Positions 57,686-59,604 of a stretch of 64,000 nt of DNA are shown here, piece after piece. Each line of letters begins with the position of its first letter. Position 1 is the stretch's first letter. The stretch comes from a virus. The notes beneath the pieces were generated by a model. It worked only from the letters and a program-made list of their open reading frames with translations, made no database searches and was not told the origin of the DNA. The position numbers were made by a program, and so were the translations under genes. Where the stretch lies: the IMG/VR virus record IMGVR_UViG_3300032116_015796, positions 16,257 through 80,256 of that record, one strand, 5' to 3'.

Positions 57686-57728
57686 AAAAAAAGGGAGAAT
57701 ATTGGTGGTTAGTCAATTTCTCCCTTTT
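57686..57728 (-). terminator. Terminator closing the RNA locus
   Basis: AAAAGGGAGAA...TTCTCCCTTTT stem; the A run at 57686-92 is the minus-strand U tract. Confidence 0.8.
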
Positions 57729-57729
57729 A

Positions 57730-58095
57730 ACCGTGGAACTTTCTCTGTCGGTAAGTCCAACCCGATACTTTTGTTAGTGAGACAAAAGTAACCATTGTCG
57801 TATGGTCGAGTTTGTACAATTTAAACGTCTATGTTTTTTATCATTTTTTCATATTTAAACACCTACTAAAATTTTTGTGGTTATCACAGAAATCCACATC
57901 TTAAAAAAAGGTGTCGTACAGTTTTCTGTCTATTGCCAGACAAAGTCATGTCGAGGACTCAAGCGGCGCTCTTATTTCCTTTACTTTTTTCCTTAAGGGT
58001 AAAAATGTGTGACAAAGAGTCTGAACCATCACGAATAAAACCCTGATTGTTCTGTTTTGTTCTCAGTTTAAACTCATGTTAGGTGTGATACAATT
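57730..58095 (-). ncRNA. Unidentified structured ncRNA candidate (~320-370 nt)
   Basis: No ORF; nested stems found by eye (CTTTGTC/GACAGAG, AGTCC/GGACT, ACACCT/AGGTGT, TGTGG/CCACA, TGTCTG-GCAA-TAGACA, three-way junction); boundaries approximate. Confidence 0.5.
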
Positions 58096-58122
58096 CTAAA
58101 GAACACCTATCGGAGTCACTTG

Positions 58123-58194
58123 TTGCGGGAGAAGGATTCGAACCTTCGACCTCAAGGTTATGAGCCTTGCGAGCTTCCACTGCTCTATCCCACT
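58123..58194 (-). tRNA. tRNA-Met(CAT), initiator (fMet)-like; CCA not encoded
   Basis: 72-nt cloverleaf AGTGGGA-TA-GAGC..GCTC-G-CAAGG-CTCATAA-CCTTG..GAAGG-TTCGAAT-CCTTC-TCCCGCA-A; 1:72 mismatch and A11:U24. Confidence 0.92.
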
Positions 58195-58202
58195 ATATGG
58201 CT

Positions 58203-59061
58203 AAGGCTGAGATTATACCTTTTATTTGAGAACCTTTCGAGTCATTATTGCTTCTACTCTTATCCACTTCCTTTTGAGAAGTATTTCTCAGTGACGGTCT
58301 TTTAGGTTTACCACTCCTTGAGGTCTTGGTTACTCTCTTATTACTCAACTCTCTTCGAGGATGCCTCCCCAATTAATCCTTGCGGGATTAGAGGTCTTTG
58401 GTAAAACTACACTCGGACTTGGGGTCTTTGTGTGCAATGAACGGCTCATTACTATGTAGTCACCTTTCACCAAAACCTGGTAGACACTTTTCCTTAGATT
58501 TCATAATTAATAGGACTTAATTTTTAGTCATAAGTTTTGTGTCGTGGATGTATCGAAGTAGTGGTCTACCCTAAGCTCAGTCATCTTTTGAACAACTGAA
58601 TACTAAACTACTCCGTGAGATGTCCCCACCTCCATATTTCAAGTTTACTTCGTACCAAGACCTTGGTGGGTCTTTGATAAGGATAGTAGCGACACCACTC
58701 GTTCTCTATCTTACCTTTCGGTTTTAAGTCCACTTTCATATTGGAACCCGCAATTATGTAATTGGATAACTACACCTCTCACTTGATTCCTATGGGTTAT
58801 TCTTATTGGTGTTCCCACCTCAACCAAACAATCCACATTGCTTGGTCACCCAACCACTTTCCCTAAAGCGTCGCCCTCAGTACTGAAGGTCGGGTGATAT
58901 CCCACTTGTATACTCGAGTTCGGTTTCCCAAACCGCAGAATCATCAACACGGGTGATTCCACTTTATCCTACTTTCGTAGTTTATTTAACGACCATATAC
59001 GGCCGATTATCTTTTACAGGTTATCATCTCCCCGAAGGGGTACTTTCACCTGATGGATAAT
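58203..59061 (-). ncRNA. Large structured ncRNA, GOLLD-like (~860 nt)
   Basis: No credible ORF; GC-richer than flanks; many GNRA/UUCG hairpins on the minus strand; abuts a tRNA; 3' hairpin AAGGTATAATCTCAGCCTT resembles my recollection of GOLLD 3' ends; family needs a covariance-model search. Confidence 0.7.
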
Positions 59062-59067
59062 TCAATC

Positions 59068-59137
59068 TTTCAAAGAACTCTATCGGACGTTTCCGATTTG
59101 TTTTACAAAGTTAAGAACAATTTTTTTAATTTCCAAA
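59068..59137 (-). promoter_or_regulatory. Promoter/hairpin/boxA cassette 1
   Basis: TTTG-N20-TAACTTTG-TAAAACA, ATCGGA-AACG-TCCGAT hairpin, GTTCTTTGAAA. Confidence 0.8.
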
Positions 59138-59158
59138 TTTTTCTCAAACTTTTTTTTC

Positions 59159-59275
59159 GGTTATTATAACTGTTGCGGTAACATGTCTCATTTACACTTT
59201 AAATGCGAAGGATTCCCGTAGTCACTTTCCTCACATACAACAGTAGCCCTACGGACCTAGACTGTTTCTATAACC
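59159..59275 (-). ncRNA. Small pseudoknotted ncRNA candidate (~117 nt)
   Basis: GGTTAT/ATAACC terminal stem, AACA-GTCT/AGAC-A-TGTT, CCGTAG/CTACGG, CATTTA/TAAATG and pseudoknot ACTGTTGT/GCAACAGT; has its own promoter cassette. Confidence 0.55.
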
Positions 59276-59281
59276 AATTTT

Positions 59282-59349
59282 TTTAAAGAACTCATCGGAC
59301 ATTTCCGATTTGTTTTACAAAGTTAAGAAGAACTTTTTAATTTTCCAAA
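59282..59349 (-). promoter_or_regulatory. Promoter/hairpin/boxA cassette 2 (direct repeat of cassette 1)
   Basis: TTTG-N20-TAACTTTG-TAAAACA, ATCGGA-AATG-TCCGAT, GTTCTTTAAA. Confidence 0.8.
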
Positions 59350-59366
59350 TTTTTCTTCAACTTTTT

Positions 59367-59510
59367 TTAAGATACTACGTATACATCGTCAGTACCGTGA
59401 AATTTAGCTCTTGCCATTGCAAGAACGGCACTACAAGTGTAATACTTCACACCATCATTCCCATAGTAGTAGAACAAAGGTTCGTCAATTACTTGTGTTT
59501 CGTTACTCAT
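59367..59510 (-). CDS. 47-aa small protein MSNETQVIDEPLFYYYGNDGVKYYTCSAVLAMARAKFHGTDDVYVVS
   Basis: ATG-TAA ORF below the track cut-off, directly downstream of cassette 3. Confidence 0.65.
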   Translation of the reverse strand: MSNETQVIDEPLFYYYGNDGVKYYTCSAVLAMARAKFHGTDDVYVVS

Positions 59511-59543
59511 GTTTGAGTTTTTAAACAGTTAATACTCGGTTAA

Positions 59544-59604
59544 TTCAAAGAACTTTTTTTCAAAAGTGTTTTACAAATATACTAACTTTTTTTTGTCTGT
59601 CAAG
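59544..59604 (-). promoter_or_regulatory. Promoter/hairpin/boxA cassette 3
   Basis: CTTGACA..TATATTTG-TAAAACA, ACTTTT-GAAA-AAAAGT hairpin, GTTCTTTGAA. Confidence 0.7.

Follow-up and report, generated by a model that had tools for sequence, protein, structure and literature searches.

The subject of this analysis is an RNA locus of a phage (minus strand, positions 57686–59610) within a 64,000-nucleotide (nt) stretch of DNA, below called the window, which comprises bases 16257–80256 of the 80-kb IMG/VR virus record IMGVR_UViG_3300032116_015796. The locus was identified as that of the phage RNA GOLLD and is laid out as three tandem minus-strand units: the gene of a 47-amino-acid (aa) protein; a structured small RNA of ~117 nt; and GOLLD followed by tRNA-Met and a trailer of ~430 nt. 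Ahead of each unit stands a leader cassette, in which a promoter is followed by a word that matches the boxA of Bacteroidota ribosomal RNA (rRNA) operons (rrn), and a fourth leader of this kind precedes the phage gene for transfer-messenger RNA (tmRNA). GOLLD, the small RNA and the tmRNA are probably made by the termination-resistant rRNA transcription machinery of the host; taken as a whole, this explanation is regarded as fairly probable.

Results and Discussion

Leader cassettes of the GOLLD locus

The cassette ahead of GOLLD (cassette 1; 59070–59156, minus strand) consists of a −33 element TTTG (59137–59134), a −7 element TAACTTTG (59113–59106), a boxB-like hairpin (59097–59082) and the boxA-like word GTTCTTTGA (59078–59070); a spacer (59008–59069, minus strand), in which the words ATTGAATTATCC are conserved and another hairpin is found, leads from the boxA to the structural start of GOLLD. 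Cassette 2 (59283–59368, minus strand), which precedes the ~117-nt RNA, contains −33 TTTG (59349–59346), −7 TAACTTTG (59325–59318), a hairpin (59309–59294) and the boxA-like word GTTCTTTAA (59291–59283), and is 83% identical to cassette 1 across 94 nt. In both, TTTG is followed after 20 nt by TAACTTTG, then by the words GTAAAACAAA, a hairpin of 6 pairs and GTTCTTT(G/A)A, i.e., the hairpin comes before the boxA-like word. Cassette 3 (59545–59610, minus strand), which precedes the 47-aa gene, is built without a hairpin from −33 TTGACA (59603–59598), −7 TATATTTG (59581–59574) and boxA-like GTTCTTTGA (59553–59545); a scan for sigma-70-type promoters gave a spacer of 16 nt between TTGACA and TATATTTG, and the same arrangement was found before the homologous open reading frame (ORF) of two related loci (L238 and L268).

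TTTG-N19-21-TAnnTTTG is the consensus of Bacteroidota sigma-A promoters, and each of the three units would start with a host-type promoter of the sigma-A class; the promoters of the three cassettes read TTTG/TTG, N19-20 and TAnnTTTG. The pattern TAnnTTTG-N5-35-GTTCTTTRA occurs at exactly 4 sites in the 80-kb record (reversed control pattern: 0). The boxA-like word is situated 10–36 nt 3' of the −7 box TAnnTTTG ahead of GOLLD, the small RNA and the tmRNA, the start of transcription being predicted from the promoter; in most cassettes the distance from −7 box to word is 34–36 nt with the hairpin and 10–20 nt without it. The hairpin is lacking in cassette 3 and in the tmRNA leader. Among 26 distinct cassettes its pairing holds in 96.5% of cells, with compensatory changes in 5/6 pairs, values reached by 0/500 shuffles. 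Covariation of the leader hairpin in related loci, a check proposed with the initial annotation of this DNA, was thus obtained.

All elements listed in the initial annotation were found in place on the minus strand, and a terminator scan agreed with it in that no minus-strand intrinsic terminator separates the parts; the hits inside the locus were the two leader hairpins and a weak hairpin in the small RNA (59257–59245) without a T-run. The same annotation had described the locus as a single operon behind one leader. That description was given up: three full promoter–boxA cassettes are present, one per minus-strand unit, and since each has its own promoter the units are tandem and do not form a one-leader operon.

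Identity of the boxA word

For comparison, 120 Bacteroidota 16S loci were collected via the CF319a probe site. The word G[TC]TC[T/A]TT[A/G/T]A was found ≤300 nt upstream of 16S in 57/87 Bacteroidota rrn leaders and just ahead of 23S in 58/72 16S–23S spacers; to be found in leader and spacer alike is characteristic of the rrn boxA. The rrn word is typically GTTC(T/A)TTGA, the usual contexts being GTTCTTTGAAAATATTGAA and GTTC(A/T)TTGACATATTGRAA, the latter predominating in spacers. The GOLLD leader of the related locus L116 (GTTCTTTGAAAATATTGAA) shares an identical stretch of 19 nt with the rrn leaders of L139 and L158, and some phage tmRNA leaders have GTTCATTGAAAATATT, the Flavobacteriaceae rrn variant (GTTCATT). 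The boxA core agrees with the consensus of B. subtilis (AUGAUCUUUGAAA) and E. coli (UGCUCUUUAACA) (PMC13753749).

A weight matrix was trained on 109 distinct rrn sites and applied to ~128,000 positions of the window; the four phage sites ranked 1–4 (scores 22.7, 20.3, 16.4 and 15.3; next best 13.7), the core of this test being partly circular since the rrn sites had been chosen with a phage-derived pattern. By comparison of the sequences, GTTCTTT(G/A)A is the boxA of Bacteroidota rRNA operons. The rrn-type boxB–boxA arrangement of the initial annotation, a hairpin with GTTCTTTGA, was accordingly retained, the motif being equal to the boxA of Bacteroidota rrn leaders and spacers; for rrn, PMC10250234 gives the order boxB, boxA, boxC. 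NusB and NusG domains are present in Bacteroides thetaiotaomicron, which belonged to the control genome set; no homolog of NusB, NusG or S10 was found in the 80 kb of the phage record.

Conservation and range of the leader

Related loci were obtained from IMG/VR by two scans with different GOLLD words (80 + 31 loci, one locus common to both). These longer patterns replaced an initial 14-nt GOLLD word, which had given mostly chance matches (31/116 loci matched the GOLLD 3' domain of the window by single-sequence nhmmer). Fourteen loci were checked against Rfam, and 14/14 were GOLLD. In the first set, the boxA word was present in 45/45 evaluable unique GOLLD loci, on the same strand and 650–800 nt upstream of the GOLLD marker; in the second set, it was present in 18/18 (17 at −900 to −600, one at −516). 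Overall, the word stands upstream in 63/63 evaluable related GOLLD loci, with varying flanking bases; owing to the common ancestry of these loci, the figure counts lineages under selection and not independent inventions. The full order of 47-aa ORF, small RNA, GOLLD, tRNA-Met and trailer recurs in 3 other distinct loci (L028, L099 and L116). The initial annotation had proposed to look for conservation of order and of boxA positions in related phages: the order recurs in the 3 loci named, the leader boxA is kept in 63/63, and the word after the tRNA is not conserved.

The word was counted 117 times in related loci totalling ~523 kb; it precedes GOLLD (46), tmRNA directly (~19), the small RNA (5), tRNAs (at least 4) and the 47-aa gene (3), and a few cassettes precede nothing recognisable. 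For 28 occurrences, about the chance expectation, neither a promoter nor an annotated feature was found within 150 nt. The genes served by the leader are mostly those of stable RNAs.

Two observations concern further RNAs. In L071, a promoter–boxA cassette on the same strand as GOLLD and ~7,040 nt upstream of its marker is followed by unannotated sequence (not tRNA, tmRNA or GOLLD), which may be another leader-driven RNA. Four human-gut sequences of ROOL, the other phage cage RNA, begin with UGUUCUUUGAUAUGAAAAUGUCAACC / UGUUCUUUGA (PMC12286853, supplementary ROOL alignment); in phages of Bacteroidota, the same boxA leader may precede ROOL.

GOLLD RNA and tRNA-Met

GOLLD reportedly goes back to work by Weinberg in 2009. 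In the window, the RNA extends over ~59007–58204 (minus strand) and comprises a 5' domain (~59007–58616) and the 3' domain (58615–58204), the latter being the only part covered by the Rfam model. This model, RF02032, matched 58204–58615 (minus strand) with 312.9 bits (gathering score 150) over model positions 1–416 of 416; homology to the 5' domains of related GOLLD loci extends over the 460 nt that precede this match, which gives an RNA of ~800 nt in total. Aligned by eye, its start agrees with that of the env-38 construct from the cryo-electron microscopy (cryo-EM) structure of the nanocage (PMC12286853, supplementary table 4). The boxA word is located ~60 nt upstream of the first base of that construct and is therefore part of a leader and not of the cage.

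GOLLD is known to be phage-borne and to occur near tRNAs, env-38 itself adjoining tRNA-Met (PMC12286853, PMC5737381), and according to cryo-EM it forms a 14-mer nanocage (Kretsch et al. 2025, PMC12286853). The RNA of ~860 nt in the initial annotation is therefore not new; it is GOLLD, whose phage and tRNA link has been published in these papers. In the Rfam scan suggested with the initial annotation, the large RNA was recognised as GOLLD, and no match at E ≤ 5 over 57000–60000 was obtained for the small RNA or the trailer.

The tRNA-Met gene (anticodon CAT; 58194–58122, minus strand) follows 9 nt after the 3' end of GOLLD and does not encode CCA; 16/50 unique loci, window included, have it in this position (+158 to +167 relative to the GOLLD marker). 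A search of IMG/VR with a 19-nt word from the published env-38 construct gave no relatives of env-38. The tRNA island of a related GOLLD phage contains the Rfam 'freshwater-1' RNA (L067:3348–3409; RF02979, 87.7 bits).

Phage tmRNA leader

The fourth promoter–boxA leader and the tmRNA occupy 55426–55871 on the plus strand; the leader is built from TTTG, N19, TATATTTG (55449–55456) and GTTCTTTAA (55467–55475). The tmRNA gene (55481–55871, plus strand; tag GNVINKLSAVGLIRTEESVAVA) starts 5 nt after the boxA word and is followed by a terminator (~55878–55903, plus strand). The boxA leader directly (5 nt) before tmRNA was found in ~19 related phage loci. Host ssrA genes were inspected for the same feature: 4/5 have a promoter abutting the gene and no boxA word, and boxA before tmRNA is therefore a phage habit. 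An origin of the tmRNA boxA by copying from host ssrA was rejected on the same count. The only one of the five host genes with such a word, the ssrA of Flagellimonas (L292), has GGTTCTTTGA ~60 nt upstream; the rrn operons of Flagellimonas have GTTCATT, unlike its ssrA word.

Proposed mechanism

The mechanism is built on four kinds of observation: the identities of the parts, their conservation, the covariation of the hairpin and the match to the rrn boxA sequence. Host RNA polymerase would start at each cassette, and the nascent boxA would be bound by host NusB–S10, which together with NusG and NusA would give a fast, Rho-resistant elongation complex of the rrn type; both Nus factor binding and antitermination are predicted from the boxA word. 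Long untranslated structured RNAs, such as the 800-nt GOLLD, would then be completed rather than cut short by Rho. The elongation complex may also aid co-transcriptional RNA folding, a possible benefit suggested by the fact that transcription complexes act as RNA chaperones (PMC8632103).

GOLLD, tRNA-Met and the trailer are probably made as one precursor because no conserved promoter or terminator lies between them; their co-transcription, already put forward in the initial annotation, is also in keeping with the one conserved terminator common to all. Cleavage by RNase P at the 5' end of the tRNA would leave GOLLD with a 9-nt tail, cleavage by RNase Z at its 3' end would free the trailer, and all units would end at this intrinsic terminator. 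The same leader would drive the phage tmRNA gene. A wider proposal assigns two functions to the host rrn complex, the completion of the long RNAs and the chaperoning of GOLLD folding and nanocage assembly, and makes the co-located and co-regulated 47-aa protein, 117-nt RNA and tRNA-linked trailer cofactors or cargo of the cage in a self-contained 'RNA organelle' module; it is regarded as speculative and rather unlikely.

Alternative explanations

The word GTTCTTTGA might be read not by host Nus factors but by a phage factor (an antiterminator, a processing or stability protein, a nuclease), or it might mark the site of a leader-trimming RNase, the likeness to rrn being that of a shared processing signal. 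Being placed 5 nt before the mature 5' end of the tmRNA and ~60 nt before structural GOLLD, the word must leave the mature RNAs; host ssrA genes (4/5) are without the motif, and with ~27% of the phage genome in the record phage factors are possible. We nevertheless hold this explanation to be doubtful, as leader and spacer of host rrn operons contain the word too, with matching T/A variation and, on its 3' side, a similar context (ATATTGAA), the 80 kb hold no homolog of NusB, NusG or S10, and the 5' end of tmRNA is made by RNase P, for which no such signal is needed. A function of the word in DNA, where it would belong to an extended promoter or to the initially transcribed region (e.g., of strong stable-RNA promoters or for a phage-modified RNA polymerase), would account for the fixed distance between −7 box and word in most cassettes and for the conserved initially transcribed GTAAAACAAA; it is made quite improbable by the loci L009, L038, L088 and L105, in which the word is 60–150 nt from the nearest −7 box, by the host rrn spacers, which carry the word far from promoters, and by the intervening hairpin, which drifts in sequence but keeps its pairing by covariation, be it as an RNA or as a DNA stem.

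Least credible of all is a promoter-proximal attenuator, that is, a weak terminator or pause formed by the hairpin and the U-rich GUUCUUU that throttles or times the RNA genes, even though both leader hairpins (59309–59294 and 59097–59082) were flagged as terminator-like by the scan: the stem has 6 pairs only, the U-run is broken by C and begins 3–6 nt after the stem, a U-tract would not require the invariant G, C and GA of the word, and the word is present without a hairpin in cassette 3 and the tmRNA leaders and without a promoter in host rrn spacers. There is little more to be said for a strict single rrn-like operon with one leader, in which a functional boxA after the tRNA reloads Nus factors for the ~350-nt RNA. 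The units are indeed not separated by a terminator, GTTCTTTAG stands 18 nt after the tRNA, and three loci (L106, L247 and L254) have GTTCTTTAA ~80 nt after their tRNA; a full promoter is found at every unit, however, and the post-tRNA word varies in position and sequence among homologous trailers and falls below the top 14 matrix hits, so that this layout, too, is thought improbable.

Several points weigh against production of these RNAs by the host rRNA transcription machinery, in addition to the partial circularity of the matrix test and the common ancestry of the related loci mentioned above. Many Flavobacteriaceae rrn operons have GTTCATT and not GTTCTTT, and we know of no test of NusB–S10 binding to GUUCUUUGA in Bacteroidota. 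Where transcripts start, which parts are co-transcribed and how they are processed is deduced solely from where the elements lie. Three cassettes stand before a protein gene and not before an RNA gene. No boxA-like word was found upstream of GOLLD in the Caulobacter phage phiCbK, and the leader is hence a feature of this clade and not of GOLLD generally. A search for GOLLD in a set of 151 Bacteroidota genomes gave no match in those searched; consequently, no host is tied to the phage.

47-aa protein

The 47-aa gene (59510–59367, minus strand) had been listed in the initial annotation as an ORF within a non-coding RNA locus; it is a genuine, conserved small protein gene linked to GOLLD. A homolog of 46–55 aa is situated directly upstream of the GOLLD leader in 21/50 unique loci (window included), with 30–74% identity over the aligned part and the invariant motif Y-x4-G-x4-T-x5-A-x3-A. 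AlphaFold gave a beta-beta-alpha-beta fold (predicted local distance difference test, pLDDT, 81). No PHROG match, no PDB fold match at E ≤ 0.001 and no named or informative Atlas cluster were obtained, Pfam not having been searched. The protein is a candidate partner of GOLLD.

117-nt RNA

The ~117-nt structured small RNA (59275–59159, minus strand) lies between two leader cassettes and is conserved, with very high sequence conservation, in 5 other distinct loci (L116, L028, L099, L254 and L261). A 31-nt insertion falls in the apical loop, and 3 pairs have compensatory changes; the z-score of the single-sequence fold is only −1.1. Since the variation is too low, no firm structure can be given. 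In the segments 59169–59176, 59237–59244 and 59259–59264 (minus strand), ACUGUU is able to pair with a 5' or a 3' AACAGU, and all three ACUGUU/AACAGU segments are changed together in L254 (C to U, G to A); alternative helices or a pseudoknot may be formed.

Trailer and terminator

The trailer (57725–58121, minus strand) is a conserved non-coding RNA with no ORF ≥40 aa on that strand. Its 11 distinct homologs share the invariant blocks AAGTGACTCC, ATGAGTnTAAA, GTGG...ATAACCAC and TCACT; indels are not multiples of three and would break a reading frame, and local hairpins covary. The structured RNA of ~350 nt in the initial annotation is thus confirmed as a conserved RNA, its length being corrected to ~430 nt when counted to the end of the terminator. 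This intrinsic terminator (57686–57724, minus strand; stem GGGAGAA/TTCTCCC, then T7) closes the locus and is conserved, with compensatory changes, in 11 homologs.

The 'second boxA' of the initial annotation, GTTCTTTAG (58104–58096, minus strand), is placed 18 nt after the tRNA. Alignment with the homologous trailers of L116, L028 and L099 showed no conservation of this word, and it is outside the 14 best hits of the rrn matrix in the window; the word at 58096–58104 is probably non-functional.

The word GUGACU(A/C)C was noted three times on the minus strand: in the small RNA (GGAAAGUGACUAC, 59215–59230), at the conserved GOLLD junction (GAAAGGUGACUAC, 58451–58470) and where the trailer begins with an invariant stretch (AAGUGACUCC, 58111–58120). 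It is too short to be accepted as significant, but could be an element that these RNAs have in common for binding or pairing.

Source phage and neighbouring genes

The completeness of the record was estimated by CheckV as 27%. A domain search found a CHU_C domain (type IX secretion system, T9SS) in a neighbouring ORF, and the sequencing runs that contain the stretch are freshwater metagenomes; together with the promoters of TAnnTTTG type, these findings point to a large freshwater Bacteroidota phage as the source. Logan contigs of six RNA sequencing runs from six studies contain 36–61% of the sampled words of 57686–59610, which is suggestive only.

A gene for a T4 Rnl1-type RNA ligase (61932–63005, minus strand; PF09511, E = 1e-19) is located near the RNA locus and fits a role in tRNA repair. 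At 60090–60185, tandem repeats of 24 nt give a low-complexity stretch of the KEKSEKEK type in the ORF 59885–60541 (minus strand), for which an M23-peptidase match remained below threshold (24.8 bits; cut-off 28.7).

Comparison with known systems

With published GOLLD (RF02032) the RNA shares the full-length match to the 3'-domain model, a 5' domain homologous to that of env-38, the phage origin and the adjoining tRNA-Met; there is no published account for GOLLD of a promoter–hairpin–boxA leader, a 47-aa protein, a 117-nt RNA or a trailer, and full-text searches of the literature gave no paper in which GOLLD or ROOL is connected with boxA or antitermination.

The likeness to bacterial rrn, with its complex of NusA, NusB, NusE/S10, NusG and SuhB, lies in the promoter-proximal hairpin followed by boxA, the identical boxA sequence, the position of boxA upstream of a long untranslated structured RNA, and a tRNA that, as predicted here, is co-transcribed and excised. 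In contrast to rrn, the phage leaders serve GOLLD, a small RNA and tmRNA as cargo, every unit is provided with a promoter of its own, there is no conserved spacer boxA, and no leader–trailer processing stem came to light.

In phage lambda, the host boxA is used together with the N protein. The nutL and nutR sites of lambda share with the present leaders a boxA and a hairpin in a phage transcript and, if the prediction made here holds, the Nus factors. In lambda, boxA is followed by boxB, to which N is bound, whereas here the hairpin comes first, as in rrn, and its stem and loop vary freely; no lambda-N-like gene was identified in the ~27% of the phage genome that the record covers. Phage use of the host boxA without a phage N protein is already known from early transcription of T7, in which boxA follows the early promoters A1–A3 (Savalia 2010, cited in PMC3709561) and host boxA and host RNA polymerase are employed without a protein of the lambda-N type. 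That boxA serves early mRNAs in E. coli; the present one serves stable non-coding RNA genes in a Bacteroidota setting and is repeated per gene. In Gammaproteobacteria, boxA is found before CRISPR arrays and suhB and shields a long untranslated transcript from Rho termination (cited in PMC13753749); phylum, phage setting and cargo are different here.

GOLLD is among the largest and most elaborate RNAs of bacteria and phages, and the finding suggests a route for its production via host promoters and an rRNA-type leader, which the phage applies gene by gene to stable RNAs, tmRNA included. Antitermination of the boxA type, as predicted here, would thereby be extended to Bacteroidota, where it has hardly been studied. 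The 47-aa protein, the 117-nt RNA and the ~430-nt trailer are the first candidate partners of GOLLD, and experimental handles are offered by boxA mutants to switch off GOLLD in infection, NusB–S10 assays and plasmid cassettes for GOLLD in Bacteroidota. The link between GOLLD, phages and tRNA is not new; what is proposed here is a known mechanism, boxA, in a new application to a known RNA family.

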